Shown here one piece after another: positions 31,077 through 59,031 of a stretch of DNA of 64,000 bases. The stretch is from Candidatus Heimdallarchaeum aukensis (GTDB lineage: Archaea > Asgardarchaeota > Heimdallarchaeia > Heimdallarchaeales > Heimdallarchaeaceae): assembly GCA_021513695.1 (NCBI GenBank), contig CP084166.1, positions 896,001 through 960,000 on the forward strand, read 5' to 3'. How positions within the stretch are numbered: position 1 is the stretch's first letter; each line of letters begins with the position of its first letter. The notes beneath the pieces were generated by a model. The model did no database searches. It saw only the letters and a list, made by a program, of their open reading frames with translations, and had not been told where the DNA came from. The position numbers and the translations under genes were made by a program.

Positions 31077-31131
31077 AGTTTTATGTTTAATTTTTTTTTT
31101 TACTTTTAAAGCTCACTATTTAGGAAAAAGG

Positions 31132-31977: not shown

Positions 31978-32335
31978 TAGACATTTCCATCCTTTTTCAT
32001 TTCCTTAATTTCAATTTTTTAATTATTTCTAATTATTTCGATAATCTCTGATTATCTCTTTTTTACCTTAAACGATTCTTCGGCGAACCGAAATAAACCC
32101 CACTATTAAATTTTTTAAGTTGAAGAAAAACAAAGAAAGCTAGCAAAGAAGGTTAAATGAACTGTTCAAGAGAAAAAAAAATTATTTTGCTAAATTTTAA
32201 CTTAAACTATTAAAGATATTAACTGTTTTCTGGCCAAGGATAGATAAAATTTCTTGCATCTCTTCTTCTATTGTATACTCAACTCACATTGGTAACAAAT
32301 AAATAGAAGTGGGTTACGTGGGTAAGTGATATATT

Positions 32336-33110: not shown

Positions 33111-35113
33111 TCTGCTCTTGTGTGTTGTGTTATTAGTTCTAAATATGATGGAGCAGGATCTATTCCTTTTTTGTTTCTTGTATCAAATATTGTCATTTTT
33201 ATTTTCTCTTTATTTATTGTTTGTGATAATTCTTCAATTTCCTTCTTTATACTCTTATTCTGTAATGAAGTGTTAGCTTTTCCATCAGTTATTAGTAACG
33301 CTTCTACAATACTCTTTCTGTTCTTATTGCGGAATTTTTTTGTGATACTTAATAGGGATTGAAATCCTGATGCTAATGGCGTTCTTCCTCCTGTAGGTAA
33401 AGTTTTCAATGCATCTATTACACGACAATAATCTCTTGTAGGAGGTACTGTAACATTAGCTTTCTTTCCTCTGAATGCTATCATACCAATATAGTCTCTT
33501 TTTACATATGCTTTTTCAACAAACTTTTCTGCTAAGCCTTTTGCTACACTAATTCTCCTTTGTAATCCCATGCTACCACTAGAATCTAAGATAATCAAGG
33601 TGAGTTTTGGTAATTGTTGTTTTCTTACTTTTACTCGTATCTCATCATCTGTAATTCTTAGTGGTAATTTCTTCATATTCCCTATAGCAGCATACAAGGT
33701 TCCAGATATGTCAATATCTCGTAATTGTTCCTTCTTATTTGGAGGTACATATGAAACAGGATGGCCTTGTAGTGAACCTACTGTTGTTATTCTAGCACTC
33801 CTTGAACCTCTCCACATATGATCGTCACTTAAGTTCTCATGTGCTCGCTGTATCTTTTTTTTTATCTCAATATCTGTTTTTGCACTCTCAAACGTTTCTT
33901 CATGTTCTCCCATTTTGTTATTATCTATATCGTTAGGCTTTTTTTTTACCTCTCTTTCAGCTTTTGTTTCCTCATTTCTTCCTTCCTGTTTTTCTTCTTC
34001 GTTTTTGTTGGATTCCATATCCTTTGTAATTTTTTCTATCATCTCTTGGGGAGCTATGTTATCAAATGGATTTGTTCTTAATCTATGGGGTAAAGCTAGT
34101 TCCATTGCTTTTTTTATGTCCTCTAATGTTACATCTCTACGTCCATCAAGTGCTGCAATTGCCTTTGCTGTTTTTACTGTAACAATTTCAGCTCTATGTG
34201 TCTTTATCCCTAATTTCATTATTGATTTTATTAAGGAGTTTAACAATTCATCATTAATGATTATTGTATCAATAATTTTCCTTGCATCAGTTACTGCTTT
34301 TCTAATTGTATTCTCTTCTCTTTCATATTCCAAGTAAAATTTATCTGGATTCTTGTGAAACTTTTCGACTCTTCTTATAACCTCAATTCTTTCTTCAAAC
34401 TTCTCCAAAGCCTCAATATTAACGTATAAACCAAATCTGTCCAACAATTGGGGGCGTAATTCCCCTTCTTCAGGGTTCATACTCCCTACTAATATAAATC
34501 TCGCAGGATGTTTTACTGAAATGCCCTCCCTTTCAATAATATTCCATCCCATAGCTGCAGCATCAAGCAATACATCAGCTACATAGTCATCTAAAAGATT
34601 CACTTCGTCAATGTACAAGATATTTCTATTTGCTTCTGCTAATATTCCCAGTTCTAAAGCTCTTACACCTTGGGTTAAAGCTTTTTTTATGTTCAGTGTT
34701 CCAACTAGTCTGTCTACTGTAACAGTTAATGGTAAATCTACTACTCTCATTCGTTTTGATGAGATTTTCAATTTCTGCCCTTCTATTGTCATACCATAAC
34801 AGGAATCGCACATTTCTAAATGATGGTACGGATTACAGTTGAAAGGACATTGTGCTACAACCTCAACCTCTGGTAGGACATATGATAATGCCCGAACAAT
34901 TGTTGACTTACCTGTGCCTTTTTCGCCAGTTAGGAGCACTCCTCCTATCGTTGGATCAACTGCGCAACATAGTAGTGCAAGTTTAGCTTTTTCCTGTTCC
35001 ACTATAGCAGTGAAGGGAAATACGATCTTTCTTTCATTTTTGTTCCTTTCTGTTAGATGTCCCATTTTGTATTCACTCATCTCTTTAGTTTTCATTCTCT
35101 TTGTTTTGAACAA
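33095..35113 (-). CDS. Fused ChlI/ChlD-like class I chelatase ATPase subunit (AAA+ MoxR-type N-terminus + vWA C-terminus), CobS/CobT-equivalent
   Basis: Walker A LLTGEKGTGKST and Cys-rich CPFNCNPYH in the N-terminal ChlI/BchI-like part; C-terminal vWA MIDAS motif ILDSSGSMG; immediately downstream of cobN. Confidence 0.8.
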   Translation of the reverse strand: MFKTKRMKTKEMSEYKMGHLTERNKNERKIVFPFTAIVEQEKAKLALLCCAVDPTIGGVLLTGEKGTGKSTIVRALSYVLPEVEVVAQCPFNCNPYHHLEMCDSCYGMTIEGQKLKISSKRMRVVDLPLTVTVDRLVGTLNIKKALTQGVRALELGILAEANRNILYIDEVNLLDDYVADVLLDAAAMGWNIIEREGISVKHPARFILVGSMNPEEGELRPQLLDRFGLYVNIEALEKFEERIEVIRRVEKFHKNPDKFYLEYEREENTIRKAVTDARKIIDTIIINDELLNSLIKSIMKLGIKTHRAEIVTVKTAKAIAALDGRRDVTLEDIKKAMELALPHRLRTNPFDNIAPQEMIEKITKDMESNKNEEEKQEGRNEETKAEREVKKKPNDIDNNKMGEHEETFESAKTDIEIKKKIQRAHENLSDDHMWRGSRSARITTVGSLQGHPVSYVPPNKKEQLRDIDISGTLYAAIGNMKKLPLRITDDEIRVKVRKQQLPKLTLIILDSSGSMGLQRRISVAKGLAEKFVEKAYVKRDYIGMIAFRGKKANVTVPPTRDYCRVIDALKTLPTGGRTPLASGFQSLLSITKKFRNKNRKSIVEALLITDGKANTSLQNKSIKKEIEELSQTINKEKIKMTIFDTRNKKGIDPAPSYLELITQHTRAEIIRI

Positions 35114-38100
35114 ATTTGTTCCATGTTTGTGTTATATTAGTTAATTTATTCTTCCAGTTTTCTACCTCTTCTGGACTATACATCCTTATTTCTCCCCCTT
35201 GAATCTCTGCTTCTCCACCTAAACTATCCTCTAGTACACCTTCAATATCGGCATATGCTTCTTCTAAATTGTCTTTCATCTCTTCTGTGGGTTGCCACAA
35301 CTTCCTTTCTATTGCTTCAGTAAGTCTTCTAGAAATCTCTTCTGCTGCCCATATATTGTTTTCAGCAAACCATTTTCTCATTTCTTCATCAATTATGTAT
35401 GTTTCTGCAATGTTATCGAATACCCAATCGTTAACTAATTTCGTTGTTGATGACCAGCCGTACAAATGCAAGATTTTCTTTGAGAATTCATTTGCTCCTC
35501 GATAACCATGCTTCTTCATTTCAGATATCCATGTTGGATTTAGCAGTTTTGCTCTTACAATTCTCTCTATCTCTTCTTTTATTCCTCGTATTTCTGCTCT
35601 TGTTATGTCTTTAGTATCTACAACAACTATTTCTACATCGTCTTTACCAGTCAGACTTTTTACTGTATTATAAAAACCTCCATGGGTGGAAAAATAACAG
35701 CAACAATTGAGAATATCATGTTCATCAGTAATATGATTTCTTGTAATAACTTCGACATTTTTCAAGTTCATTATTAAGCCTTCAGGGTTTGGTTCACCAA
35801 ATAGCTTTTTAGTATACATGTAACAGCCCCATTGTACCCACGTTTTAGCTAGATCTTCGTCATCTTTCCAAGCTGACGATTCAATAGCATAATTTACTCC
35901 AGATCCATAAGTACCTGAAGGGCTACACCAAACCCTACATTTTGCAATTTCGTGATTTTTTTCCCCACGTAACTCAGTCAAATATTCAAGATAATGCTTT
36001 TTGACATAATTAACATCTGTTGACTCTTCAAGCATAACAACCTTTGATACTGCTTCATCGATCAACTGAAAATAAATTGGTAGAGTATCTCTTACTATTC
36101 CACTGATTCGAACAGAAACATCGATTCGTGGCCTTCCAAGTTCTTCTAACGGAATAACTTCAACTCCTTTAACTGTTCCATCGGTTCGCCAAATAGGCTT
36201 AGTTCCTAATAAATAAAGAATCTGTGAGATCTGTTCTCCGTCTCCTTTATAACCATCAAGACTCCATAACCATTGACCAATAGTTTCTGGATATTTGCCA
36301 TGATGCTTATCGTAATGTTCAAGTAATTTTTCTGCTGTCTCTATTCCTATCTTCCATGCTGCGCGTGTTGGAATACTTGTAGGATCAATAGCATAAAAAT
36401 TCCTTCCAGTGGGTAGTATCTCTATCTTCCCTCTTGTTATTGACCCTGAGGGGCCAGGTTCTATAAACTGTCCACTTATCCCATATAAGAATCCATCTGT
36501 TTCAACTTTACATTCTTGAATTCTTTTTGCTATTTCTAATGCTCTTTGAAATGCTTCAAGAGCTTCTGCCTTTGAAGTGAATTTTAATTTTAATTCATTC
36601 ACTTTGGAACTCATATTTTCTATTAACTTCTTATGGAGGATTTCTGTGAAAGCTTCCATCGTGAGTTTTTCGTTATTAGTTTCATTTTCAAGAAGAGTCT
36701 TCAAAACCTCTATTGCAACTTTATGTAATATTTTAAGAGTATCTTTATTTAGAAGACCATATTCATTAATAACTAGTTTGTTGTTTCTTAAATGATTATA
36801 ATCAAGCCCAATACACTCTGCAAGACACCTTCTTATTGAATGAAATGAATGGGTATCATAACTCATTGTAGTGACTACATATTCTGCTAACTTTACTGAG
36901 TTTTTAGTGGGGTAGCCAAAAATATGCAATCCCATTTCGATTTGTGTTTCCATTGTCGCGTTTAGATAATTATGGATCTCCTCTACAACATGTTTAGGAT
37001 CTTCTTTTGTGATTGGAATATTGCTTTCTTTTGCTTTTTTTATGAGCTCTTCATATATTACTCTCACCCTAGCATTGTCACCCAGTTGTTCTGCTTTAGA
37101 ATATTCAGTTAATAATGAATCGATTTCGTCAAGCACTTCTGCCATTGCTAAAGGAGGGTACATGTGATCCACTATAGTGGCATAGCTTCTTCTCTTAGCT
37201 ATTACTCCTTCCATCGGATTCGAAACATTATAGACATATAGATGAGGAATATCATCAATAGATATTTCTGGCCAACATGAAGGTGATAAACCTACTCCTT
37301 TACCTGGTCTAAATTCAAGGTATCCATGTGTTCCAAAATGAACAATCATGTTTGCCTTCCAAATTCTTGAAATCCATCTATATACTGCAAACCATTGATG
37401 TGGAGGTGAAATCGATGGGTCATGAAGAATTTTGCATACATTGCCATCACAAGCTGCACCCGCACAGCCAGGCTTTGGTTGCGTGATAACTAGAACATTT
37501 CCAAAACTTATACCTGGTATGACAAACTTATTGTTATAAACCATACCAATTAACGGTTTAGGAGCTTTTCCCAAAAGAATATCCTCAGGATAGCCCCAAT
37601 CTTCTTGAATTTTCTCTTTAGTATCTATAGGTAGCTCGTTAAACCAGTTCATATATGTTTTAAGATCAGAATAACCAACTGCTCCACCTTTTTTCACTAT
37701 TTCGTCAACAGATGTCCAACGAAACTCACTTATTGCTTTTCGTTCAGTGAACATCTCAACTAGCTCTTTTCCATCCTTTGGAAGCGTTTCACCAATATTG
37801 TAACCTCTCTTCTTTAAGTCTTTAAGAAGTCGAACAACACTTTCGGGAACATCAAGGCCAAATCCAACACCAATACTTCCTTCAAGACTCTTACATGGCG
37901 GAGTTATTAGGACAATTGCTATTTTTCGCTTCTCTGGAGGAAGATATCGTAAAGTGATCCATTTCTTTACACGTTTAGCGATATATTGGGCATGGTGTTC
38001 AAAACATTCGTACCTCTTTATTCCTTGGGGATCAATCTTTGCACCACCTAAATATATAGGCTCAATAATCCCATCTACTTCAGGCATGATTACTGTATAG

Positions 38101-38987
38101 ATTTGACTCATGTAACTGATGCCTGTTTCATCAGAGAGCCAATCGTTGATACCTTTAGAGAAGTCTCGTACTCCTTGAAGTATTGGTATATTCATCTTTT
38201 TAAGTAATTCAAGCCCTCTCACACTTTTGAATCCTTCAGATTTTAATCGTATTATTTTTCTACTAAGTAAAAAGAAACTAGTTAAATTGATTAGAACATC
38301 GATAGTTGGCTTTTCATCTTTTATGAAAAAAGTTTGAATTGTACTTTCACTATCTGGAGCATCTACTCTTGTATCGCCAAAGGAATATGTGAATACAGGT
38401 ATAACGCCTATTCCTTCTTCTTCTAACGCATCTATAATCGGTTTCACATAATCAGTGTTGCCATATAGCCAAATCGATCTGTAAAACATTATCCCTACAA
38501 ATTTCTTTTCATTATGTGGATAGATCTTTAAATAATCATTTAGTTCGTTGAAAGTGCCATATTTAGGATGCCATATTCCATGCCATGGAACTTTTTTTAA
38601 TCCATCAACTTCAATATTTTCCCCCAAAGCTTGCAAAAGCAAGCGAATAAGTTGTGTAAGATTCTGCTCTCCTCCGAACTTATAAAATGCAATAGCCTTA
38701 CTGATTACCTCATTTGTAGCTTTAGAGAGATGAACTGTTGAGTCGGATCCAGAAATTATAATCTTTGCACTGCTTTGACTAATTGCTTTCTCAACATCTG
38801 TAGAAAGGCCAGCAGAATAGATAAAAATGGCATCTGCATTCTTAATGAATTCTTCGTGTTTTGTGGCTTGAGAATCTGTTGTAATAATATACCTGAATCC
38901 ATTTTTTTCTGATTCCTTTGACAAGGCTTTTGATAGTGATGGTATTGCTGTTCCACTATAACCTATGATAAATGCTAAATTAATCAT
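35085..38987 (-). CDS. cobN: CobN/ChlH-family large chelatase subunit (cobalto-/nickel-chelatase, class I)
   Basis: 1300 aa; conserved HFGTHGYLEFRPGKGVGLS (CobN H-x-G-T-H-G-x-x-E-x-x-P-G-K) motif; size typical of CobN. Confidence 0.85.
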   Translation of the reverse strand: MINLAFIIGYSGTAIPSLSKALSKESEKNGFRYIITTDSQATKHEEFIKNADAIFIYSAGLSTDVEKAISQSSAKIIISGSDSTVHLSKATNEVISKAIAFYKFGGEQNLTQLIRLLLQALGENIEVDGLKKVPWHGIWHPKYGTFNELNDYLKIYPHNEKKFVGIMFYRSIWLYGNTDYVKPIIDALEEEGIGVIPVFTYSFGDTRVDAPDSESTIQTFFIKDEKPTIDVLINLTSFFLLSRKIIRLKSEGFKSVRGLELLKKMNIPILQGVRDFSKGINDWLSDETGISYMSQIYTVIMPEVDGIIEPIYLGGAKIDPQGIKRYECFEHHAQYIAKRVKKWITLRYLPPEKRKIAIVLITPPCKSLEGSIGVGFGLDVPESVVRLLKDLKKRGYNIGETLPKDGKELVEMFTERKAISEFRWTSVDEIVKKGGAVGYSDLKTYMNWFNELPIDTKEKIQEDWGYPEDILLGKAPKPLIGMVYNNKFVIPGISFGNVLVITQPKPGCAGAACDGNVCKILHDPSISPPHQWFAVYRWISRIWKANMIVHFGTHGYLEFRPGKGVGLSPSCWPEISIDDIPHLYVYNVSNPMEGVIAKRRSYATIVDHMYPPLAMAEVLDEIDSLLTEYSKAEQLGDNARVRVIYEELIKKAKESNIPITKEDPKHVVEEIHNYLNATMETQIEMGLHIFGYPTKNSVKLAEYVVTTMSYDTHSFHSIRRCLAECIGLDYNHLRNNKLVINEYGLLNKDTLKILHKVAIEVLKTLLENETNNEKLTMEAFTEILHKKLIENMSSKVNELKLKFTSKAEALEAFQRALEIAKRIQECKVETDGFLYGISGQFIEPGPSGSITRGKIEILPTGRNFYAIDPTSIPTRAAWKIGIETAEKLLEHYDKHHGKYPETIGQWLWSLDGYKGDGEQISQILYLLGTKPIWRTDGTVKGVEVIPLEELGRPRIDVSVRISGIVRDTLPIYFQLIDEAVSKVVMLEESTDVNYVKKHYLEYLTELRGEKNHEIAKCRVWCSPSGTYGSGVNYAIESSAWKDDEDLAKTWVQWGCYMYTKKLFGEPNPEGLIMNLKNVEVITRNHITDEHDILNCCCYFSTHGGFYNTVKSLTGKDDVEIVVVDTKDITRAEIRGIKEEIERIVRAKLLNPTWISEMKKHGYRGANEFSKKILHLYGWSSTTKLVNDWVFDNIAETYIIDEEMRKWFAENNIWAAEEISRRLTEAIERKLWQPTEEMKDNLEEAYADIEGVLEDSLGGEAEIQGGEIRMYSPEEVENWKNKLTNITQTWNKFVQNKENEN

Positions 38988-38989
38988 GA

Positions 38990-39781
38990 TTAATCGGTCA
39001 CCTCGACTGGATAAACACTGATTGGATAGACAATTTTACAATGATTGTTGTTGATTATTCTCGCGTTTATTCCATATGCTTTTGCGATATTTGCTTCATT
39101 AATGACTACTTCTGGTTTTCCTGCCCCTATTATTTGACCTTTAGCAAGTATAACAATAAAATTTGAAAATCTCAATGCTAAATTAGGATCATGTTGGCTC
39201 ATTATTGCGCATATTTTTCTTTCTTTTACAATCTTGTTAATTATAGTCATAACTTTTAGTTGGTTTTTCAGATCTAAATGTGCAGTTGGTTCATCAAGAA
39301 TCAACACTTCTGGCTCTTGAGTTAAAGCTCTTGCAATTAATAATAATTGGCGTTCTCCTCCGCTAATTTGAGTATATGACCTGTCTCTCATATGGTAAAG
39401 ATTAACAAGTTTCAGCATTTCTTCAGCTTTAGAATAATCCTCTTCTGATGGCAGAGAAAACATTGAAGTGTAGGGAGTTCGCCCTAAAAGAACAAAATCT
39501 AGAGCAGAAAGAGCAAATAAAGGATTGTGATTTTGAGGAACATACCCGATTATTTTTGCCCTTTCCCTTTGTCCTATCTCGAAAATACTTTTCTTGTCTA
39601 TAAAAATACAGCCTTTTTTTGGCTTTAGAAGAGTACAGATGCATTTTAAAAGTGTAGTCTTGCCAGAACCATTTGGACCCAGTAGACTAACGACTCCACC
39701 TTTTTCAACTTGTATTTTTATCTCTCTTAATTCAAATTCAATATCATACGAAAATGAAAGATTATCAATTACTAATGCCAT
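38990..39781 (-). CDS. ABC transporter ATP-binding protein (FepC/BtuD/FhuC type)
   Basis: Walker A LLGPNGSGKTTLLK, signature LSGGERQ, Walker B LILDEPTAHLD. Confidence 0.85.
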   Translation of the reverse strand: MALVIDNLSFSYDIEFELREIKIQVEKGGVVSLLGPNGSGKTTLLKCICTLLKPKKGCIFIDKKSIFEIGQRERAKIIGYVPQNHNPLFALSALDFVLLGRTPYTSMFSLPSEEDYSKAEEMLKLVNLYHMRDRSYTQISGGERQLLLIARALTQEPEVLILDEPTAHLDLKNQLKVMTIINKIVKERKICAIMSQHDPNLALRFSNFIVILAKGQIIGAGKPEVVINEANIAKAYGINARIINNNHCKIVYPISVYPVEVTD

Positions 39782-40800
39782 ACGCCTTTACTCCTTTTTC
39801 TTAACAGGTAAAGAAAGAATGGTGCTCCACACAAAGTTGTGAGTATACCAACTGGAATTTCATAAGGTAGTAATGACCTTGCTATATTGTCAGCGAGTAA
39901 AAGAATAGATGCACCAGTTGCTGCAGATAGTGGAATTATTTTTCTATTATCAGCAGTTTTGAAGAGCATTCTTATTGTGTGCGGAATTATCAGTCCTATC
40001 CATCCTATAATGCCACATACTGAGATCAAAGAAGCAGAAACCAATGTTGCTGCTCCTAGAACTAGTAATCTCTCTTTCTCAACATTTATACCTAACGTTT
40101 TTGCTTCCTCATCCTTCATAGACAATGCATTAAGCCTCCATCTCATACCAAATAGAATTAAGGAACCTATTAAGATTGGAGGAAAAATTTGTAACACTTC
40201 TTTCCATGATATGGTTGAAAACCTTCCCAATAACCAATATACAATATCTGCAACATGGTTGGGTTCTACAATAAATTTAATAATAGATAAGCATGCTGAA
40301 AAAAGAGAAGAGACTATTATTCCTGCCAAAATAAGTGAAATTACTTGCACATCTCCCTGAGTTTTTGCTACCAAATATGTCGTACCAAATGCTATTATAC
40401 CAAATATGAAAGCAAATATTTGGACAAGAAATGAATCTAATAATAATAAAGAAATTGCAAGGGCTGCGCCAAACGCAGAACCAGCTGAAACACCTAGAAT
40501 ATACGTGTCTACAAGCGGGTTCCTAAAGACTGCTTGTAATGATGCACCAGAAACTGAAAGTGCAATTCCACCTAATACTGCTGCAATAATTCTAGGTAAT
40601 CTGATTTCGAAGATAATTACTTCATATGCTCTAGGCCATGATTTTTCTGGTGTGAGTGAAAAAATCTTAGAAATTATTATTCTTAGCACTGTTCCAGCTG
40701 GAATGTATAATCGACCAATAAAAATTGAGAAAAAAACTATAAGTAGTGGGGAAAAATAAAGAAAATAAAGAATTGCTTTTTTAGGTACTGATAGTTTCAT
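39772..40800 (-). CDS. FecCD-family ABC permease (BtuC/FepD-like)
   Basis: 342 aa, about 9-10 TM, Gly-rich helices typical of FecCD permeases; overlaps the ATPase gene by a few codons. Confidence 0.8.
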   Translation of the reverse strand: MKLSVPKKAILYFLYFSPLLIVFFSIFIGRLYIPAGTVLRIIISKIFSLTPEKSWPRAYEVIIFEIRLPRIIAAVLGGIALSVSGASLQAVFRNPLVDTYILGVSAGSAFGAALAISLLLLDSFLVQIFAFIFGIIAFGTTYLVAKTQGDVQVISLILAGIIVSSLFSACLSIIKFIVEPNHVADIVYWLLGRFSTISWKEVLQIFPPILIGSLILFGMRWRLNALSMKDEEAKTLGINVEKERLLVLGAATLVSASLISVCGIIGWIGLIIPHTIRMLFKTADNRKIIPLSAATGASILLLADNIARSLLPYEIPVGILTTLCGAPFFLYLLRKRSKGVWH

Positions 40801-40832
40801 AGTAACTCACATGTAAATTTTGGTAACTAACT

Positions 40833-41894
40833 TTATTGCCATTCAAAGGGATCATTGATACCATAAATATTCATGAAGAGATTATTTGAAACAGTTTCAA
40901 AATTTATATCAGTAAATAAGTCTGGATAAGCCCACATCCCCATGCGTAGCACAATAAGTGGTGAAGCAGGAGACCATGTACTAAGTTTAGGGTATTGGAA
41001 GACCTTTTGATTTTGAACCGCACTGATACTTTGCCATTGTGTGTCATTCAATATGTCTTCAGGAGTATATTTTGCTGATCCCCAAATTACAATAACATCA
41101 GGATTCCATGCGATGATTTCTTCAATTGAAACCTCAGCATATTTTTCTTTAATATCGACAGCAGGATTGATACAACCGCATATGTGTATGTAAGTGTTTG
41201 TTACACCAAGCCCGCCTGTTACTTTTGTTTTGCTGCTCCATAAGTGAATCATTTTTAGTTTTGAATCTATTGTAAGATCATTTGTCTTTGAGGAAGGTAT
41301 ATCCATTGTTTTTTTCATATAAGTGATGATTTCACTAGCCCTGTCACTCACATTGAATATTTCACCTAAAAGCTCTATGCATTGATATAAATCATCTAAG
41401 TTGTCTAAACTAATCAGCACTACGGATATGTTTAATGCTTCTATTTGAGGAAGTATGTCTTGCATATGAGAACTTGCATAAGCTATAACAACTTCAGGAT
41501 CTTCCAGAACTAATTCCTCGATGTTCACACTAAATGAGGAACCTGGTGAGGGAACATCTGTAAGGTTGAAATTATATTGTTCATCGGCAGCTACTAAGAT
41601 TGGATTACTATAAGCGTATTTTGAGATACCAACGACTTTATCCCATTGTCCTAAGGCATATACGATATCGTAACTCTCTAAAACTACTACTCTGTTGACT
41701 TCATAGGGAATTGTTACATTGCGCCCTTCAAAATCAGTAATAACCTTATAATCTGGGAGACCAAGATTATGTGATGATAAGTAGTATAGACCAACTATAC
41801 CGCCAGTTACTATACTAGCTATAATTATTCCAATTATTATAGCTCTTGAATTTATTTTTCTCAACAAGGTCATTTTTGCTCCTATGTGCCCCAA
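40833..41894 (-). CDS. Substrate-binding protein of the corrinoid/siderophore/metal-chelate ABC importer (class III SBP, BtuF/FepB-like)
   Basis: 353 aa, N-terminal signal/TM anchor, operon position upstream of FecCD permease and ATPase. Confidence 0.65.
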   Translation of the reverse strand: MGHIGAKMTLLRKINSRAIIIGIIIASIVTGGIVGLYYLSSHNLGLPDYKVITDFEGRNVTIPYEVNRVVVLESYDIVYALGQWDKVVGISKYAYSNPILVAADEQYNFNLTDVPSPGSSFSVNIEELVLEDPEVVIAYASSHMQDILPQIEALNISVVLISLDNLDDLYQCIELLGEIFNVSDRASEIITYMKKTMDIPSSKTNDLTIDSKLKMIHLWSSKTKVTGGLGVTNTYIHICGCINPAVDIKEKYAEVSIEEIIAWNPDVIVIWGSAKYTPEDILNDTQWQSISAVQNQKVFQYPKLSTWSPASPLIVLRMGMWAYPDLFTDINFETVSNNLFMNIYGINDPFEWQ

Positions 41895-41912
41895 ATTGGA
41901 TAAGTTATAAAA

Positions 41913-41939
41913 GTGTTACGATTTTAATATTCGTAACAC
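41913..41939. promoter_or_regulatory. Perfect inverted repeat GTGTTACGA-N9-TCGTAACAC in the promoter region of the transporter/chelatase operon (candidate metal-regulator operator)
   Basis: 9-bp arms, perfect dyad symmetry, about 20-45 bp upstream of the SBP start and next to a TTTATAA-like element. Confidence 0.4.
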
Positions 41940-42058
41940 ATTGTTTGTATCCGAAAAAGATTAGAATAAGAACTTTTTAGGAACAAAGCCCCTGTCTCTC
42001 AAAAATTATTTGCCAATAGATCTATAAATAGAAAAGAAAAAAAGCAAGAAGAAGAAAT

Positions 42059-42338
42059 TATCTTCTAACTATAAACTTCTTGGAGATAAAAAAACCTAAA
42101 CAAAGTAAAACTACAACACAAAAAATGGCTCTAGTAGATAAACCAAATTTACCAGGGTAAGAATCAGCATTAAGAGGGTCTAAACCATTTTGTATCTCTT
42201 AATAATCTGAATAACCATCTCCATCAGTATCAAGATTGTTAGGGTCTGTGTTATAATTGTATTCCTCTAAATTGGTTAAACCGTCATTATCACTATCTTC
42301 ATCTGCATCATGGTTTTTGTTAGCTCTGTTTTAGCATA
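42059..42338 (-). pseudogene. C-terminal fragment of a cell-surface protein: thrombospondin-type-3-like Ca-binding Asp repeats plus a PGF-CTERM-like anchor, with an in-frame TAA; the 5' part is replaced by the CRISPR array
   Basis: Minus-strand translation gives ...DADEDSDNDGLTNLEEYNYNTDPNNLDTDGDGYSDY*EIQNGLDPLNADSYPGKFGLSTRAIFCVVVLLCLGFFISKKFIVRR* (a PG-F/K motif, then a TM helix and basic tail). Upstream it runs directly into the first CRISPR repeat. Confidence 0.55.
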
Positions 42339-42341
42339 CTC

Positions 42342-45300
42342 ATTTTCACACTACTTAGTTCAGCTTAAACCTCGTACTTGCTTGCAGAAGCACCTAGCAC
42401 GTAGTAATTTTCACACTACTTAGTTCAGCTTAAACCTTTCGATAATGATGGTGTTAGTGGTGAAGTGCAAAATTTTCACACTACTTAGTTCAGCTTAAAC
42501 AATCTATCAAGTGTCTCATTTTTTACGTTTCCTAGATTTTCACACTACTTAGTTCAGCTTAAACAATAACGTTTGAACATTGTTCTCGAATTCTTCATAA
42601 ATTTTCACACTACTTAGTTCAGCTTAAACAGTTGATGAAGGTGTGACAAAGTGTGACACTTCGATATTTTCACACTACTTAGTTCAGCTTAAACATTCTA
42701 CTTTTTTCTCAATCAATTTACAAGTTAGAGCGTCATTTTCACACTACTTAGTTCAGCTTAAACAGAACTAGGATCAGTCTCGGTCCATTCAGAAACTCGA
42801 TTTTCACACTACTTAGTTCAGCTTAAACTCCTAAAATAATAACTGATCCTAAGAATCCTGATAAGATTTTCACACTACTTAGTTCAGCTTAAACCCAGAG
42901 TGAGAACGGGGTTATAGGTCAATAATAAAGAAATTTTCACACTACTTAGTTCAGCTTAAACTTTGTTTTGATTTTTCTTTCTTTCAGGATAGCATCAATT
43001 TTCACACTACTTAGTTCAGCTTAAACAAATGGCTAAAAGAACCACAAGAACTTCAAGAAAATAATTTTCACACTACTTAGTTCAGCTTAAACTTTACATT
43101 TATATAACTTCCCCAGAAGATTATATATAATTTTCACACTACTTAGTTCAGCTTAAACCAGCAATGTTGGCACATCTCCCCACTCTACTTTCTCATTTTC
43201 ACACTACTTAGTTCAGCTTAAACATTACTCTTTTTTCTTTACAAAACATTTATATATTATATTTTCACACTACTTAGTTCAGCTTAAACGTTATATTAAG
43301 TGTTAAATAGTTCTCTTTTCCTTCTTATTTTCACACTACTTAGTTCAGCTTAAACGTAAAAAAATGAGTAATTCAGAAGAACATTTTCACACTACTTAGT
43401 TCAGCTTAAACTGAAAACCTTATAGGCTGGCGTGAATACGCAAACCTAATTTTCACACTACTTAGTTCAGCTTAAACACGTTTCCAAGTAAATCTGTTAC
43501 TATTTCAAATTTATTTTCACACTACTTAGTTCAGCTTAAACTGATTTACGTTACCCTCATGTTTGTTATGTTTATTTATTTTCACACTACTTAGTTCAGC
43601 TTAAACGAATTTACTTTACACAATGATCGTGCTGATACTGTTTTATTTTCACACTACTTAGTTCAGCTTAAACACATTGCTTGATATTGGAATTTTATAT
43701 CTTAATATATTTTCACACTACTTAGTTCAGCTTAAACCTGACTTTTTTGGAGAATTTGGTTTCGCTGATAGTAATTTTCACACTACTTAGTTCAGCTTAA
43801 ACTAGAAAATTGTATTCTTCAAACTATACGTATAGATATTCCATTTTCACACTACTTAGTTCAGCTTAAACCTTAAATTATCTTCAAACCAATCAGAATA
43901 ATAAAGTTCATATTTTCACACTACTTAGTTCAGCTTAAACATAAATATCGCTATTTCTCCTTTCTTAACTGTTCTTAATTTTCACACTACTTAGTTCAGC
44001 TTAAACCATAATCTATCATAAAAAAGTCTCCTATATCATAAGTATTTTCACACTACTTAGTTCAGCTTAAACACTATTTTTCCACCTTCTCTTTCTTCCC
44101 ATTCTCTCTTATTTTCACACTACTTAGTTCAGCTTAAACTTTGTACTTCACTGTGCTTAATATCTCTACTTATACTATTTTCACACTACTTAGTTCAGCT
44201 TAAACTTTATCACCCCTCATATATTTATTATACTTCCTAAAATTTTCACACTACTTAGTTCAGCTTAAACCGTACACCCATTCCTTAGGTGTCCAGTCTA
44301 ATACTTATTTTCACACTACTTAGTTCAGCTTAAACTCACCTATATATATGATGTTCTAACACATAAAAATCATTTTCACACTACTTAGTTCAGCTTAAAC
44401 CTGACTTTTTTGGAGAATTTGGTTTCGCTGATAGTAATTTTCACACTACTTAGTTCAGCTTAAACTAGAAAATTGTATTCTTCAAACTATACGTATAGAT
44501 ATTCCATTTTCACACTACTTAGTTCAGCTTAAACCTTAAATTATCTTCAAACCAATCAGAATAATAAAGTTCATATTTTCACACTACTTAGTTCAGCTTA
44601 AACATAAATATCGCTATTTCTCCTTTCTTAACTGTTCTTAATTTTCACACTACTTAGTTCAGCTTAAACCATAATCTATCATAAAAAAGTCTCCTATATC
44701 ATAAGTATTTTCACACTACTTAGTTCAGCTTAAACACTATTTTTCCACCTTCTCTTTCTTCCCATTCTCTCTTATTTTCACACTACTTAGTTCAGCTTAA
44801 ACTTTGTACTTCACTGTGCTTAATATCTCTACTTATACTATTTTCACACTACTTAGTTCAGCTTAAACTTTATCACCCCTCATATATTTATTATACTTCC
44901 TAAAATTTTCACACTACTTAGTTCAGCTTAAACCGTACACCCATTCCTTAGGTGTCCAGTCTAATACTTATTTTCACACTACTTAGTTCAGCTTAAACTC
45001 ACCTATATATATGATGTTCTAACACATAAAAATCATTTTCACACTACTTAGTTCAGCTTAAACCTCATAACAAATGGATAAAGACTATTGAAATCAAGAA
45101 TTTTCACACTACTTAGTTCAGCTTAAACCAATTATTATCGCAACAGCCATCTCAAGATCACCTTATTTTCACACTACTTAGTTCAGCTTAAACGTTTTTG
45201 AATAACAGTCTGTGAAGAGAGAGAAGCAAATTTTCACACTACTTAGTTCAGCTTAAACGTCTTATTTCGTTAAAATCTTCAACAATAGCTTGTTGATTTT

Positions 45301-48300
45301 CACACTACTTAGTTCAGCTTAAACACTTTAGACGTGAAAAATTGGTTAATGGTTTTAGGTGATTTTCACACTACTTAGTTCAGCTTAAACGTAAAGAGAA
45401 AAGAAGAAAGAAAAAGAACGATAAAAGAATTTTCACACTACTTAGTTCAGCTTAAACGAGATATTGCAACATTTTGCTACAAAAATATCTAAAAAATTTT
45501 CACACTACTTAGTTCAGCTTAAACTTTGAAGTATCTGTGATGTCTTTTGTGACTACTCCTGATTTTCACACTACTTAGTTCAGCTTAAACCTTACAGAGG
45601 GAGAATATGCGGGACAATATATTATTACATTTTCACACTACTTAGTTCAGCTTAAACATAGAAGAAGAGCTCATTACAACTTTCCTTTTCCGTGATTTTC
45701 ACACTACTTAGTTCAGCTTAAACAAGCGTCAGTAGCACCTACAAGCGGGACATTCACAAGATTTTCACACTACTTAGTTCAGCTTAAACTCTATTTTATA
45801 TACTTTCTCTAATTCTAAACTTCTACTATTTTCACACTACTTAGTTCAGCTTAAACAGTAGAAATGAAGGGGGGGTTAGGAGCTAGAAAAAATTTTCACA
45901 CTACTTAGTTCAGCTTAAACCAATTCTGTTAATTTGTTTATTTCTTCCCATCTTTCATTTTCACACTACTTAGTTCAGCTTAAACGATAAATGGTACAAT
46001 CGTTTGAACCCTTTTAGAAGAAATTTTCACACTACTTAGTTCAGCTTAAACAAGGTTATCGCCTTTACATTTAGGGTTCTCACAAGTAATTTTCACACTA
46101 CTTAGTTCAGCTTAAACTATTTATGTAAAAGTCCTCTTCATCTATTATTAAACTATTTTCACACTACTTAGTTCAGCTTAAACACTATAACTTTAAGCAC
46201 TTGTTTTACTATATCGAAAAATTTTCACACTACTTAGTTCAGCTTAAACAGTCCGTTCTCGTTTCTTATTTCTTCGTCATCGGTTCTAATTTTCACACTA
46301 CTTAGTTCAGCTTAAACATGATTTTGTATAGTTTCCTCTCTTTATAAATGAAAATTTTCACACTACTTAGTTCAGCTTAAACTCAGCGTTTTGTAGTTCT
46401 ATTTTTCGTAAGTCGTCATATTTTCACACTACTTAGTTCAGCTTAAACCATTTCTCCACCTCTTTTTCATTTCTACTTGTTCTAATTTTCACACTACTTA
46501 GTTCAGCTTAAACTTGCTCTCTAAATATATTGCATACATTCCTTTTCTGATTTTCACACTACTTAGTTCAGCTTAAACTGAACAAACACTCACAATCTTA
46601 TCTAATCTTTCAAACGTATTTTCACACTACTTAGTTCAGCTTAAACAAACTGAAGTCATGTCAAAGTTAGAAGCCCAACTATATTTTCACACTACTTAGT
46701 TCAGCTTAAACGAGCTTTTACTGAAGCAGAACTAAAAAGAAATACCCCAAATTTTCACACTACTTAGTTCAGCTTAAACCATTGAATTCCTCTTTCTTCC
46801 TCTGCACAATAGTGAATTTTCACACTACTTAGTTCAGCTTAAACACGGTGCTCTGAAATGATGGAGTTTGAACAAAAATATTTTCACACTACTTAGTTCA
46901 GCTTAAACGTACAATTATGTTAAATATAGAAGAATAAAAAGGAATTTTCACACTACTTAGTTCAGCTTAAACGATAAAAATGGTAGAAGAGCATAAGAAG
47001 AATGAGCTTAATTTTCACACTACTTAGTTCAGCTTAAACTCTATCCTCCTTTTTTTTGGTTTGCAGTTTATACAAGAATTTTCACACTACTTAGTTCAGC
47101 TTAAACTTCATAGAACTTGATGTTAGGGTTAGGAAAAACCTCATTTTCACACTACTTAGTTCAGCTTAAACTGTAGCTTTGAAAGTTTATCATAGTTATG
47201 TGAGAATTATTTTCACACTACTTAGTTCAGCTTAAACAGATGAAATTTCCGAATTAGTTACTTTATTTCCGTCTGATTTTCACACTACTTAGTTCAGCTT
47301 AAACATTGGAGCTCTTCCCTTGACAATACAAATATTACAAATTTTCACACTACTTAGTTCAGCTTAAACGAACGATTACAGTATAGAACAGACGAATATT
47401 ATTATATTTTCACACTACTTAGTTCAGCTTAAACATCAGCAACTCTTTGCTGGTTCTCAAGAGCTTTTTGATTTTCACACTACTTAGTTCAGCTTAAACG
47501 TGAAAAGTCTCTTGTGTAGGTATATCGTGCTGCGTATTTTCACACTACTTAGTTCAGCTTAAACAGGTTCTCACTTTGGACAAAAGAAGCAAGTTTAGAC
47601 GAATTTTCACACTACTTAGTTCAGCTTAAACTTTCTCCTGAAAGAAGATCGTATGGTAACGAATACGTATTTTCACACTACTTAGTTCAGCTTAAACTCT
47701 ACCACAATGAAGATCATGAGAAGAAACCCACACATTTTCACACTACTTAGTTCAGCTTAAACATTTTTTTCACCCATAATCATTTCCACCCCTCTTTGAT
47801 TTTCACACTACTTAGTTCAGCTTAAACTCAAGGTCAAAATGGGGAAAAAGGTCGAACTATGGTATTTTCACACTACTTAGTTCAGCTTAAACAACGCTTG
47901 TTTTGGGGTTTCACACCCCAAAATCTTATTTTCACACTACTTAGTTCAGCTTAAACTCTGCTTTATCTTCTTCTTTTTCACAATCTCTATGAATTTTCAC
48001 ACTACTTAGTTCAGCTTAAACTTTGCACCTATTATATTTTAAGAGTAAAGAATATAATTTTCACACTACTTAGTTCAGCTTAAACCAGAGAAAGACGCGG
48101 GTTCAATTTCGTATAAGTAAGTAATTTTCACACTACTTAGTTCAGCTTAAACTATCTTCTTTATCTCTTTTTCTACTAACTCATTCTTATTTTCACACTA
48201 CTTAGTTCAGCTTAAACTAGATAAAGGAAGTTTAGATAAAGCGATACAAGAATTGCTAAATTTTCACACTACTTAGTTCAGCTTAAACAAGCGAGTTCAG

Positions 48301-48420
48301 TATCTTCTTTTTCCTCATAGACCTTAATTTTCACACTACTTAGTTCAGCTTAAACATTTATTCCTGCTATACGCAATAGACTTGAAAACGTATTTTCACA
48401 CTACTTAGTTCAGCTTAAAC
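42342..48420 (-). CRISPR. CRISPR array 1: about 92 copies of the 29-bp repeat ATTTTCACACTACTTAGTTCAGCTTAAAC (+ strand) with 35-40 bp spacers; leader at the 48420 end, so it is transcribed on the - strand
   Basis: Perfect periodic repeat of about 66 bp seen directly; the transcribed orientation is GTTTAAGCTGAACTAAGTAGTGTGAAAAT, identical to array 2. Confidence 0.95.
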
Positions 48421-48535
48421 GAAGTTTATTTTCTTTTCTAGCTATATTTTTCTCTCGTTTTGTCACTCACCTTCCTGGTCGACCTCCAATAAGGTATTAA
48501 CTTTATAAATATTGACCAGATACATAAACGTTTAC
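48421..48535 (-). promoter_or_regulatory. Leader of CRISPR array 1 (about 115 bp conserved with the array 2 leader; contains a TTTATAAA TATA-like box and a GGTCGACC palindrome)
   Basis: GAAGTTTATTTTCTTTTCTAGCTATATTTTTCT...TTTGTCACTCACCTTCCTGGTCGACCTCCAATAA...CTTTATAAAT is about 90 percent identical to the reverse complement of 60858-60971. Confidence 0.6.
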
Positions 48536-48569
48536 CTTATAAACAATGACTAGTACCATTAAATTTGCT

Positions 48570-50075
48570 TTATTTTTTTGCTATTTTCTCTGCAATTACA
48601 GGATGTTTTTCGTTTACTGCATACCAGAATTTTGCCTTTCCTTTTAAATTTGGTTTTATTATTATCCATCCCTTTTTTTCCATATCTACTAGGATTCTTG
48701 GTTTATTCATTTTGAATTGATTTATGTTTATTTTTTTATGATCATGGTATTTATTTTCTTTTTGCATCCATTCATTTATTTTCCTGAAGCTCCCTGCAGC
48801 TAATCCACCTATCAAGATTGACCCATCCATACAGAGTTTGTATTCTTTTGGTTTTTCCAGTACTGACATGTATTTATCTATCATAAAGTCTAAAATTATT
48901 TCATGTTCTCCCTCTGGCCTTTCGAACATTTTTTCTTTTGTTCCTTCTTTAATTATTTTATTTTTTAGTTTGTCTAGTTGACTATTTTTTTCAAGAAGCA
49001 ACCTATTTTTTTCATGTGGGTCCCATAAATTTATTTTCTCAATTAATATTTGTTCTAAGTTTTGATACTCTCTTTCAATTACTAATTTTGTACTTATTTT
49101 CTTGAATATTTTTCTCTGGTAATTTTGTGGCAGGTAGTATGATCTTCTTCCTATAGAGTGATATAGAATTGGATTTAGGGTATTAACTATATAGTTTACT
49201 AGAGCTATTTTTTCTTCCATGTTTAGCTCCGAAAAGATATTTTCTTCTATTATTGATACTATTCTTTGTATTAGAGTTTTAATCATGAAAGCTGTTAGAA
49301 TAGCTTTTTTTACTCTCTTTTTGAATAATTCATTTTTCTTTTTGTAATGTACTATAGCATAAGTATCAATTCCGAGGGATAAAACGTCTATTTTTTCCTT
49401 TGAGCTATATATCTTTTCTATGTTTTTTTCTTCTAACTTTTGAAAATGAACACTAGGTAATTCAATTATTGAGATGACATTTGAAGATTCTAAATAAATA
49501 TTACTAAATTCTTTAAAGAATGCTCTAAGCAAACAAAATTTTACCTGTTCATTTTTCTTTTTTTTGCCTTTTTCATTTGTAAATATTTTTATTATTTCCC
49601 TTCGTAAATTTTCTAAACTCTCTTCTTCCAGAATTTTTTCACTTAAAATTACTTTCTTTTCTACTTCAGCTATTAATGATGGATAAATGTTTATCTTTTT
49701 TAATCCATTTACGATTTTAACTACTGTTCTTGGTTCATTCCAATAAACAGTTCTTGTTTCAATTGGAATAAGCGGTCTTAAAGGCACTCTTCTAAAAAAT
49801 AAATATTTTTTAGCGTAATAGTACAGATATGAATCATTAGTCAATTTCAGAAAAAGACTTGAGTAGTATGGAATGAAAATGTCGAACTTTTTTCTACCTT
49901 TTCTTATTACCATTTTTATTCTTTTTTTGAACTCTGTTTCTGATTTAAGGAAAGAGAGTTCTTTTCTAATCTTTTTTGAATAAAGGATTTCTGGAATGGC
50001 ATAAAACTGATGGAAAGAGATTTTTATTGTATTCATTTTATTCTCCCTAATACCATTTTTGAAGAGTAGTATCAT
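48570..50075 (-). CDS. Uncharacterised 501-aa Lys-rich protein encoded inside the CRISPR-cas locus (between the array 1 leader and cas6)
   Basis: Long ORF with coding periodicity; it overlaps the upstream ORF by 29 bp (operon); no recognisable catalytic motif. Confidence 0.5.
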   Translation of the reverse strand: MILLFKNGIRENKMNTIKISFHQFYAIPEILYSKKIRKELSFLKSETEFKKRIKMVIRKGRKKFDIFIPYYSSLFLKLTNDSYLYYYAKKYLFFRRVPLRPLIPIETRTVYWNEPRTVVKIVNGLKKINIYPSLIAEVEKKVILSEKILEEESLENLRREIIKIFTNEKGKKKKNEQVKFCLLRAFFKEFSNIYLESSNVISIIELPSVHFQKLEEKNIEKIYSSKEKIDVLSLGIDTYAIVHYKKKNELFKKRVKKAILTAFMIKTLIQRIVSIIEENIFSELNMEEKIALVNYIVNTLNPILYHSIGRRSYYLPQNYQRKIFKKISTKLVIEREYQNLEQILIEKINLWDPHEKNRLLLEKNSQLDKLKNKIIKEGTKEKMFERPEGEHEIILDFMIDKYMSVLEKPKEYKLCMDGSILIGGLAAGSFRKINEWMQKENKYHDHKKININQFKMNKPRILVDMEKKGWIIIKPNLKGKAKFWYAVNEKHPVIAEKIAKK

Positions 50076-51525
50076 ATCTTGAAGTTGGCAGATTTACTCT
50101 TTTAGTATACATAAAGCTGGTTATAAAAAAATAAGGTTCTTCTTCTTCAAAAATCGAAGAAAACAAATCTATGAAATTAATTACTAATTCATTGGGTATT
50201 CTTACTGTAACAATTAGTCCCTTTTCATCTGTTATTAAATTAGTAAACGGTTCAGAATAAACTTCTGGAAACAGAGATAATCTATCATGAATCTCTTTTT
50301 GATCCACTTTTTTCTTAAATATAATCATCACATCGTTAGTTCCAAAAATTGGTATTATATTTACTCTTTTTATGTATAGTTGTTCATTTGTGAAGTGTTT
50401 CAAATATTTTCTTATTGTGCTCTGTGAAATATTAGTTTCCTTCTCTATTCTACTTACAGTCAAATCTCTATTCTTAATTATATATTCAAGTATCTTAAGG
50501 CCAGGCTTAGTTAATTTTAATTCACTTTCTTTTGTGTCTTCGAATCTAGGTTTCAATTCATTCTTTGTTTTACTCTTATTATGAAGTGCAATTGCAATTT
50601 CGCTTATCGAATAATTCCAATTTTTGTTTTTATAATCATATTTTGAATAATCAAACGTTGTTATCTGTTCTTCTCTATGCAGAACTAAAATTTCATATTT
50701 TGTTATTTCTTTTTTCTTGATTGACAAGTCAAAAAATTCACTTATTCTCCTACATATCTCCTTCAACAAGGGCACTGGGAATGAGTAGTAGAGTAACAAT
50801 GCCTTGCATGATGTATTCAGTGTCATCGATTTTCTTAAGAACATTTTAGGGAAATTTTCTTTTTTATGTATTGAAGAGAGTTCATCAAATCCATAAACAA
50901 TCACAAGAAGCAAGACAAAGTTTGTCTTTTTCAAATTCAAACTTATTCCTTCATAGATTATTCCTTTATCAAAGAGTAATTTTTTTGTTCTTGTTATATT
51001 TCCTGCATCTTTATTCAAAATTTTACTTAATTCTTTGGTTGAAGTAATTTGATATTTGATCATTGCTTGTAGTAATGAAAACTCTGCTTTTGTTAGACTA
51101 GGCTTGATTCTACTCCTTAATGTAAAAAAGAATCTCAGGAAAAGAGACCAATTTTCTAATAGTATTTTATTTTTTTTATATTCTAAAATAGAAAGTAATT
51201 TATTAGCTGTTTCTTCATCTTGAAGAAACTGTTTATATGACGAGAATATTACATATTTCAAATCATTATATTCTTTCTCTGTACTATATTCAGACCAAAA
51301 ATTCAACCATTTTTCTAATTGTTGTCTAGTTATGCTTTTTTTTCCTTTATTTTTCTGAAAATAAAGTATTCTATATATTTTAAAACATATTAAATCCCAA
51401 GCAGGTGTTTTTGGAACTATATTTAGTTCTTCAACTTTTTTTTTAAAAAATTTAAAATGTGATCCTAAGATTTCTCTCCCTTTCTCTAAAATTACTTCTC
51501 TTTCTTTTATTTGAGAATATTTCAT
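50047..51525 (-). CDS. Uncharacterised 492-aa protein with at least two winged-HTH modules and an Lrp/AsnC-like C-terminal arrangement (putative DNA-binding regulator) inside the CRISPR-cas locus
   Basis: HTH-like segments AEFSLLQAMIKYQITSTKELSKILNKDAGNITRTKKLLFDKGII and LKILEYIIKNRDLTVSRIEKETNISQSTIRKYLKHF, the latter followed by a beta-rich region as in AsnC-type regulators. Confidence 0.5.
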   Translation of the reverse strand: MKYSQIKEREVILEKGREILGSHFKFFKKKVEELNIVPKTPAWDLICFKIYRILYFQKNKGKKSITRQQLEKWLNFWSEYSTEKEYNDLKYVIFSSYKQFLQDEETANKLLSILEYKKNKILLENWSLFLRFFFTLRSRIKPSLTKAEFSLLQAMIKYQITSTKELSKILNKDAGNITRTKKLLFDKGIIYEGISLNLKKTNFVLLLVIVYGFDELSSIHKKENFPKMFLRKSMTLNTSCKALLLYYSFPVPLLKEICRRISEFFDLSIKKKEITKYEILVLHREEQITTFDYSKYDYKNKNWNYSISEIAIALHNKSKTKNELKPRFEDTKESELKLTKPGLKILEYIIKNRDLTVSRIEKETNISQSTIRKYLKHFTNEQLYIKRVNIIPIFGTNDVMIIFKKKVDQKEIHDRLSLFPEVYSEPFTNLITDEKGLIVTVRIPNELVINFIDLFSSIFEEEEPYFFITSFMYTKRVNLPTSRYDTTLQKWY

Positions 51526-52022: not shown

Positions 52023-52745
52023 TTGTTGATGAGGATTCTTATTTCTTTTAAGCCTAAATTTGATGTTTCAGAGGATGCCATAGTAAAACATGATATTCAA
52101 GGATTTATTTATAATCTAATCAAGTACAAAGATACTAAAGTTCTTTTAGATCATGATAAACATCATTTCAAATTTTTTTGTTTTAGCGATATTTTTCCTC
52201 AAGGTGATTTTAAAAAAGGAGAGACAAAAAATCTGTTAATTAGTTCTCCTACAAAAGAGCTAATAAATTTAATTGATGATAATCTTCCTCTTGAGAAATC
52301 CTATAGATTAGCTGGATTAACCATCGAAGTTATATCCAAAAAAACTTTTAACTTTCCCACAAAAAACAACTTTATTTCTGGAAGTCCTATAGTTTTATAC
52401 AAAGATAATACAAAGAATGAATATTTTAGCTTTAAGAAACACAAAAGTCTTAATTTCTTTCTCAATAGATTACAAGAAAATGCTGTGAAAAAGTATCAAA
52501 TTTACTATAACGATCCTGAATTTCAATTGTCTGGAAAGATTTTTGATACAATTGAATTTAGAAAGGAGGTTGCAGTTCACAACAGGAAACAAGGAAATGA
52601 ATTTATTCACATTGGCACTCTTTGGAAAAAATTAGAAAAAGAATACATAAAGAAAGAAGAAAGAAGGTTTTATCATTTTATCATGGAAAGTGGTCTTGGC
52701 GAAAAAAATAGTATGGGTTTTGGTTTTTTAAATCCTATTCAATAA
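52023..52745 (+). CDS. cas6: Cas6 (crRNA endoribonuclease), type I-B
   Basis: 240 aa; C-terminal glycine-rich loop GLGEKNSMGFGFL; first gene of the cas operon. Confidence 0.85.
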   Translation: MLMRILISFKPKFDVSEDAIVKHDIQGFIYNLIKYKDTKVLLDHDKHHFKFFCFSDIFPQGDFKKGETKNLLISSPTKELINLIDDNLPLEKSYRLAGLTIEVISKKTFNFPTKNNFISGSPIVLYKDNTKNEYFSFKKHKSLNFFLNRLQENAVKKYQIYYNDPEFQLSGKIFDTIEFRKEVAVHNRKQGNEFIHIGTLWKKLEKEYIKKEERRFYHFIMESGLGEKNSMGFGFLNPIQ

Positions 52746-52850
52746 ATTGTATTTTTTTGTTTAAATTTTACAATTAATTTTTGAAAAAACAACCTTTAAA
52801 ATATTTTTTTCTTTCTGTTTTACCAATAAAACTTAATTATTGGTGTTCCA

Positions 52851-55785: not shown

Positions 55786-55791
55786 TAATAG

Positions 55792-58990: not shown

Positions 58991-59002
58991 CGAAATGATG
59001 GA

Positions 59003-59031
59003 GTTCAAGCTAAACTAAGTAGTATGAAAAT
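59003..59031 (+). repeat. Orphan degenerate CRISPR repeat (26/29 identity to the array repeat) between cas3 and cas4
   Basis: GTTCAAGCTAAACTAAGTAGTATGAAAAT compared with GTTTAAGCTGAACTAAGTAGTGTGAAAAT; same orientation as array 2. Confidence 0.6.

Follow-up and report, generated by a model that had tools for sequence, protein, structure and literature searches.

The 64-kb window analysed here (64,000 nucleotides, positions 896,001 to 960,000 of contig CP084166.1, assembly GCA_021513695.1) comes from the archaeon Candidatus Heimdallarchaeum aukensis. It carries a type I-B locus of clustered regularly interspaced short palindromic repeats (CRISPR) with two arrays. Beside the oldest, leader-distal end of array 1 lies a 254-nt remnant of a surface-protein gene, which has lost its 5' part and carries a nonsense codon. 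A sister lineage has a stop at the same codon of its own, longer remnant. Inactivation of the gene most likely preceded its contact with the array, and on balance we favour a later deletion within the array as the event that formed the junction.

A truncated surface-protein gene at the old end of array 1

The remnant comprised the final 83 codons and the original TAA stop (42060..42058) of the gene. Between 42330 and 42058, the minus strand translated as NRANKNH followed by DADEDSDNDGLTNLEEYNYNTDPNNLDTDGDGYSDY, a stop, EIQNGLDPLNADSYPGKFGLSTRAIFCVVVLLCLGFFISKKFIVRR and the terminal stop. It encodes two TSP3-type calcium-binding repeats, a linker, a C-terminal hydrophobic helix and the basic tail KKFIVRR. 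An earlier note, made from the letters of the window, had described a frame with Asp-rich calcium-binding repeats on this strand, and Pfam agreed: TSP3_bac (PF18884) matched two repeats at E=6e-15 and 55.2 bits, with a cut-off of 25. The repeats pass the Pfam gathering score; an intact, translatable gene is not present. Because the frame has no ATG, GTG or TTG start, the list of open reading frames has none of ≥25 amino acids over the remnant (minus strand, 41895-42642). The tail of the closest longer relative, on JGI contig Ga0366835_1096285 (L004), matched the window by tblastn with E=2.7e-32. A sister lineage was represented by the ENA contigs k141_314519 (L005) and k141_2284 (L072) from two separately assembled samples. 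Their DNA was 94% (L005, over 283 nt) and 94.5% (L072) identical to the remnant, and they had the same 3' flank. The homology of the remnant to its relatives is far beyond chance.

The gene of L004 spans about 3.2 kb (483..3712) and encodes a NosD-like right-handed beta-helix (NosD/Beta_helix domains, E=2e-81), many TSP3 repeats and the matching C-terminal helix. Across the tail and 3' flank, its DNA is 77% identical to the window; at the protein level, 92 residues align with 68% identity. The motif DGYSDY-E-EIQNG and a tail of the form FF-I-x-KKFI occur in both. Unlike the window, L004 has the ~3.2-kb gene with its beta-helix, many more TSP3 repeats and a different downstream neighbour. Its reading frame is broken at three places within the TSP3 repeats, and these breaks are either real or assembly errors. 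More distant Asgard homologues had uninterrupted frames of 872 to 1864 codons. Two originated from Heimdallarchaeota metagenome-assembled genomes (L006, 939 codons; L014, 1113 codons), one from Promethearchaeum syntrophicum MK-D1 (L037, 872 codons) and one from a Thorarchaeota metagenome-assembled genome (L023, 1864 codons). All four share TSP3 repeats of the DxDxDG...E type with the window. The tail layout of L006 and L014 is that of the window, with DGYSDYEE in the last repeat, a short linker, a C-terminal hydrophobic helix and basic residues. The DGYSDYEE repeat is also present in L023, and L037 has a hydrophobic tail at its end. They differ from the window in their long open frames, N-terminal signal or transmembrane segments and large ectodomains (LVIVD, FG-GAP/beta-propeller and others).

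Instead of ending at the junction, these homologues extend far upstream. When all pieces of the L004 gene were searched against the 64-kb window with tblastn, the sole match was at 42061..42309 and no other gene fragment was found. Judged by this comparison, roughly 90% of the gene is absent from the window. The 5' truncation proposed in the earlier note is thus upheld by the length of the L004 gene and of the Asgard homologues and by the absence of any other piece from the window. A search of genome contigs with the remnant fragment returned only distant TSP3 proteins; the source genome lies outside that collection.

The membrane tail had been described as a PGF-CTERM-like anchor. The hydrophobic helix and the basic tail are present, and in superficial shape they resemble PGF-CTERM and archaeosortase A signals, with P-G-(K)-F, a hydrophobic helix and a C-terminal Arg-Arg. 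The PGF-CTERM part of the description did not stand. The NCBIfam model (TIGR04126) matched neither the 90-residue fragment nor the isolated 40-residue tail at E<=10, and no PGF-CTERM match was obtained on the tails of four relatives. Other sorting-signal models of NCBIfam likewise gave no match to the window tail. The L004 tail gave only sub-threshold matches to bacterial anchor models (NPXTG, E=0.031; LPXTG, E=5.1). The motif reads PGKF in the window and LGKF in L005 and L072 and is absent from L004. With no profile match and no conserved Pro-Gly-Phe, PGF-CTERM identity was rejected; the tail shows resemblance, not membership.

The DNA homology to L004, L005 and L072 starts exactly at 42311, and the remnant abuts the old end of the array, as had been observed, with 30 nt between it and the terminal repeat of array 1. 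These 30 nt form a stub that is unrelated to the gene. The frame had been said to run straight into the first repeat; this was incorrect, since the stub holds an in-frame TAA at 42333..42331 and the frame is not open into the repeat. The junction of repeat, stub and remnant was reproduced in two independent short-read assemblies (L001 and L003, with 100% and 99.7% identity) and is therefore not an artefact of the window assembly. Metagenome contigs were scanned with the CRISPR repeat and with a pattern made from the remnant; neither scan gave a match, and even the contig of L004 was missed. Viral contigs scanned with the CRISPR repeat gave no matches either.

The stub starts exactly where a spacer is due. 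Of the 92 spacers of array 1, 91 are longer than the stub, and with 37% GC it falls in the range that the spacers span. The simplest interpretation is an old spacer cut short after its first 30 nt. No match to the stub was found among the spacers or in the rest of the window, and its 26-nt core had no match in the viral contigs. Several other origins of the stub were tried and rejected. Diverged gene sequence was ruled out, as no alignment to the upstream DNA of L004 or L005 was obtained. For a degenerate repeat concealed within or behind the stub (41874-42341), the best match was 16/29, a value equalled by 80% of shuffles and therefore at chance level. For a copy of the sequence beyond a break at 28248 near the WD40 gene of the window, the alignment score was reached by 18-19% of controls.

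The array end at 42342 had been called the old end, and the leaders agree with this. The 118 nt abutting the cas-proximal repeat are 88% identical between array 1 and array 2 (60856..60971, plus strand), and both leaders finish in ...AGAAAAGAAAATAAACTTC beside GTTTAAGC.... Because leaders sit at the cas-proximal ends of both arrays, the end at 42342 is leader-distal. A degenerate terminal repeat is common at the trailer end of an array, although it is not obligatory. In array 1 the terminal repeat is not degenerate: all repeats are 29 nt long and 93/93 are free of mismatches. The spacers measure 35-42 nt, except for one of 27 nt.

Nonsense codon, order of events and rival explanations

The codon at 42201..42199 is TAA in the window, GAA in L004 and TGA in L005 and L072. 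Distant homologues from several phyla carry DGYSDYEE at this position. The earlier note was right about the in-frame TAA and wrong about the expected Leu, since relatives have GAA (Glu) within DGYSDYEE. The residue lost is Glu, through a single G-to-T change. A change from ancestral GAA to TAA and then from TAA to TGA takes two steps, whereas separate origins would require three or more, all at one and the same codon out of 84. The remnants of the window and the sister lineage differ by 14 substitutions, with 4/7/3 on codon positions 1/2/3; nine are non-synonymous and three synonymous. In the adjacent WD40 gene, the same comparison gave 15/6/25, and second versus third positions differed between remnant and WD40 gene (Fisher's test, p=0.005). 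This pattern fits a remnant that has drifted without protein-level constraint since before the lineages split. As in a unitary pseudogene, homology to longer genes is partial and there is no codon-position bias, the latter in a small sample of 14 substitutions. Since the sister lineage stops at this codon as well and the differences between the lineages look neutral, the loss of the gene most likely came first and its junction with the array later.

The remnant of L005 and L072 is longer, with ~510 nt compared to 254 nt in the window, and retains ~230 nt more of the gene upstream of the breakpoint of the window. A second in-frame TGA is located further upstream. No CRISPR repeat was present in the 960 nt upstream of the breakpoint in L005. 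On its 5' side, the sister remnant is bounded by a 32-nt end of an insertion sequence (IS), beyond which lies the WD40 upstream region (window 28249..28945), in contrast to the CRISPR array in the window.

The data show that the gene is truncated and carries a premature stop, that the array points away from the remnant with its leader, that the sister lineage stops at the same codon and that the substitutions are neutral; the order of events and the deletion mechanism are inferred. A GAA-to-TAA nonsense mutation would have killed the gene before PM71, the lineage of the window, and the 94%-identical sister lineage split. The dead gene would have drifted neutrally after the split, and each lineage would later have lost a differing amount of the 5' part. 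The break in the sister lineage lies at the 32-nt IS end. In PM71, a deletion by illegitimate recombination would have run from within an old spacer, of which the 30-nt stub would remain, to a point in the pseudogene, and would have taken the original distal end of the array together with upstream pseudogene DNA. A dead gene followed by a deletion within the array is the course we hold to be somewhat favoured. The deletion is preferred because the terminal repeat is perfect, the stub begins at the place due for a spacer and is short, and the array has other internal rearrangements. Several points weigh against this account. No clean intact close ortholog was found, and the frame of L004 is itself interrupted three times. 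The case for an ancestral stop depends on the parsimony of changes in a single codon and on 14 substitutions. Deletion is not proved by a perfect terminal repeat, and the stub, which matches nothing in the sequences searched, cannot be demonstrated to be a spacer. In addition, the window ends inside array 2, and the Cas2-bearing contig that was found is short and breaks at the array, which leaves some probability to a simple insertion of the entire module.

A possible but less probable course is that the whole type I-B module, consisting of array 1, the cas operon and array 2, is a mobile unit that was acquired or exchanged at this place. It would have ended in the dead gene and displaced its upstream part, and the stub would be the flank of the module. 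The genome that includes the window proteins UJG41593-UJG41608 was described by Wu et al. 2022 (PMC8813620). In the passages of that paper that were searched, the CRISPR-Cas loci of the two Heimdallarchaeum genomes are reported to vary strongly, and both site-specific integration and the complete swapping of local operons are described. The locus described there is of the same genome and of type I-B, with arrays on both sides; those passages contain no mention of the remnant or of the distal junction of array 1. The lack of a CRISPR repeat upstream of the breakpoint in L005 is consistent with an arrival. The same applies to the gene of a periplasmic binding protein downstream of the remnant, for which no homologue between 65% and 98% identity was found; a copy from the sister species H. 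endolithica was thus not found, and the neighbourhood may not be conserved there. At the junction itself, however, no integrase, tRNA gene, target duplication or element terminal repeat was seen, and a perfect terminal CRISPR repeat followed by unique DNA of spacer-like length also argues against an arriving module.

It is improbable that the array, by being inserted or by growing, put an end to a functional surface-protein gene which acquired the nonsense codon only later. The end of the array does occupy the place of the 5' part of the gene, and stops generally accumulate in pseudogenes after their inactivation. Yet the stop is found at the same codon in a lineage that has a longer remnant and no array here, and the substitutions between the lineages are neutral. 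New spacers are taken up next to the leader and leave the flanking DNA in place. Growth of array 1 takes place at 48421, ~6 kb away, and inserts DNA without replacing neighbours; array growth as the cause is therefore excluded. Insertion of the array into a working gene probably did not occur either, given that L005 and L072 stop at the same codon and L005 has no array within 960 nt. The causal reading of the earlier note was thus partly supported. Truncation, nonsense codon, abutment and the use of the remnant as a landmark of the locus boundary hold, whereas causation by the array does not.

Residual function of the remnant, as a small membrane peptide, by read-through of the stop or as a terminator or insulator under selection that separates array 1 from the transporter operon, is very improbable. 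The frame is open for 46 codons downstream of the stop in both lineages, but this is expected by default with 14 substitutions, no indels and 94% identity. A T-rich tract after the old stop is conserved and lies on the transcribed strand of array 1; no Rfam family was found at threshold, however, and no bacterial-type hairpin terminator. The lack of a start codon and of a listed minus-strand frame in this interval, the excess of amino-acid-changing substitutions and the second stop in the sister lineage also speak against a function. No function is indicated, since there is no start codon, no Rfam family and no hairpin terminator and amino-acid-changing substitutions are in excess. The remnant is best described as the decaying relic of a large, secreted, membrane-anchored surface-protein gene, which does nothing. 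The T-rich flank, which is conserved in the relatives, may have been the oligo-T terminator of the old gene and is now located downstream of array 1 on the transcribed strand. There it may incidentally end read-through array transcripts before the transporter operon.

The sister-lineage join and the 14-kb block

The breakpoint of the sister lineage touches a larger structure. In L005 (1..960) and L072 (1..280), the 32-nt IS end connects the WD40 upstream region (window 28249) with the 5' side of the remnant. The two ends of a 14-kb block of the window, 28249..42311, are thereby linked head to tail, and the join was present in both samples. A simple inversion fails to account for this arrangement, which is compatible with an IS-bounded circle, a tandem duplication or a relocation. 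The IS that is the source of the 32-nt end also occurs in the window, at 8345..9350 and 15464..16470. Both copies are ~1 kb long, encode a DDE_Tnp_1 transposase, have 24-nt inverted ends and lie inside a cluster of glycosyltransferase and sugar-epimerase genes. They are near-identical, with two 300-nt stretches at 100% identity, and the open reading frame of the second copy is split. Further signs of mobile DNA around the 14-kb block were a 486-residue, TnpB-like open reading frame with a Cas12f1-like TNB domain (25666..27126) and a 142-residue helix-turn-helix transposase fragment (32336..32764). Tentatively, and with rather low probability, the remnant may mark a recombination hot spot for the exchange of DNA blocks, at which a complete mobile type I-B module, with the stub as its integration scar, would lie beside the 14-kb iron/cobalt-uptake block. 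The head-to-tail join in the sister lineage is what an IS-bounded circle or a tandem duplication of this block would produce.

Two of the contigs contained adapter sequence. L005 is chimeric at ~1242..1320, where a Nextera adapter (…AGATGTGTATAAGAGACAG) joins the Heimdallarchaeum part to unrelated Peptidase_M50/DeoC DNA, and L061 has adapter sequence at its start. The sister remnant also exists as a public 169-residue protein (P0081, from L072 24..533), which is the pseudogene translated with Trp at each of its two in-frame TGA codons. An alternative genetic code was apparently applied by the gene caller, as the stored product was not obtained with table 11. This entry, a pseudogene listed as a protein, is a caution for annotation.

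Array 1, its surroundings and meaning

The features of the region are compiled in Table 1.

Table 1. Coordinates of the remnant, the adjoining CRISPR elements and the neighbouring genes in the window.
Feature	Position	Strand	Description
Periplasmic-binding-protein gene of a FecCD-type ABC (ATP-binding cassette) importer, UJG41600.1	40833..41873	minus	Pfam Peripla_BP_2
T-rich 3' flank (TTTCTTCTTCTTGCTTTTTTTCTTTTC)	42031..42057	minus	conserved with L004, L005 and L072, alignments extend through it
Surface-protein pseudogene remnant	42058..42311	minus	translation, Pfam, DNA homology to relatives, tblastn
In-frame nonsense codon TAA	42199..42201	minus	ancestral codon GAA (Glu), motif DGYSDYEE
30-nt stub (GAGTATGCTAAAACAGAGCTAACAAAAACC)	42312..42341	minus	between terminal repeat and remnant, unrelated to the gene
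Leader-distal (oldest) repeat of array 1	42342..42370	minus	perfect copy
CRISPR array 1	42342..48420	minus (transcribed)	93 repeats (GTTTAAGCTGAACTAAGTAGTGTGAAAAT), 92 spacers
Leader of array 1	48421..48537	minus	88% identical to sequence upstream of array 2
Type I-B cas operon	52023..60857	plus	cas6, cas8b, cas7, cas5, cas3, cas4, cas1, cas2 (Pfam)

The cas operon is flanked by two inverted arrays and has the gene set of type I-B. Pfam matches were obtained for Cas6, TM1802/Cas8b, Cas7, Cas5, Cas3, Cas4, Cas1 and Cas2. The NCBI name of Cas8b (UJG41604.1) is type I-B Cas8b/Csh1, and Cas4 is UJG41608.1. At 59003..59073, the 83 nt that separate cas3 from cas4 contain a solitary degenerate repeat (GTTCAAGCTAAACTAAGTAGTATGAAAAT, three mismatches). 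The next 42 nt end in GGTGAAATTG, a sequence similar to the 3' end of a repeat. This element could be an array remnant or a CRISPR-derived regulatory RNA; within the window, neither a promoter target for the element nor a partial target for the 42 nt was detected. Between the leader of array 1 and cas6, two minus-strand open reading frames (48570..51525) encode a protein of 501 residues with no Pfam match and a winged-helix protein of 492 residues. They may be candidates for a variable island beside the cas operon of the kind indicated in the searched parts of Wu et al. (PMC8813620). No HeimM1 coordinates were found in the supplements of that paper.

Within array 1, 43709..44371 and 44372..45034 form a perfect tandem duplication of 663 nt with ten repeat-spacer units. 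It may reflect real recombination or be an artefact of the Nanopore-scaffolded assembly. The only 27-nt spacer (43356..43382) suggests an internal deletion. Among the 137 spacers queried for self-targeting, only partial matches of 14-19 nt were found (E 0.001-0.006), none covering a whole spacer.

Downstream of the remnant, the window encodes the transporter operon with the periplasmic binding protein; CobN was also present (UJG41597.1). In a 97%-identical strain (L060), the remnant end still occurs together with the intergenic region and the binding-protein gene, so the remnant stays linked to this gene. The transporter-operon contigs L060, L063, L064, L066 and L067 all stop ~0-200 nt upstream of the binding-protein gene and are therefore uninformative on the junction. 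The region upstream of that gene appears to be repetitive or variable across related populations.

Altogether, the remnant is an ordinary gene relic in a published genome and of little biological consequence. It provides one dated example of the decay of a surface-protein gene in an Asgard archaeon and places the distal limit of array 1 exactly at 42342. With the old end of array 1 rearranged, its oldest spacers may be missing, which bears on the array as a chronological record.

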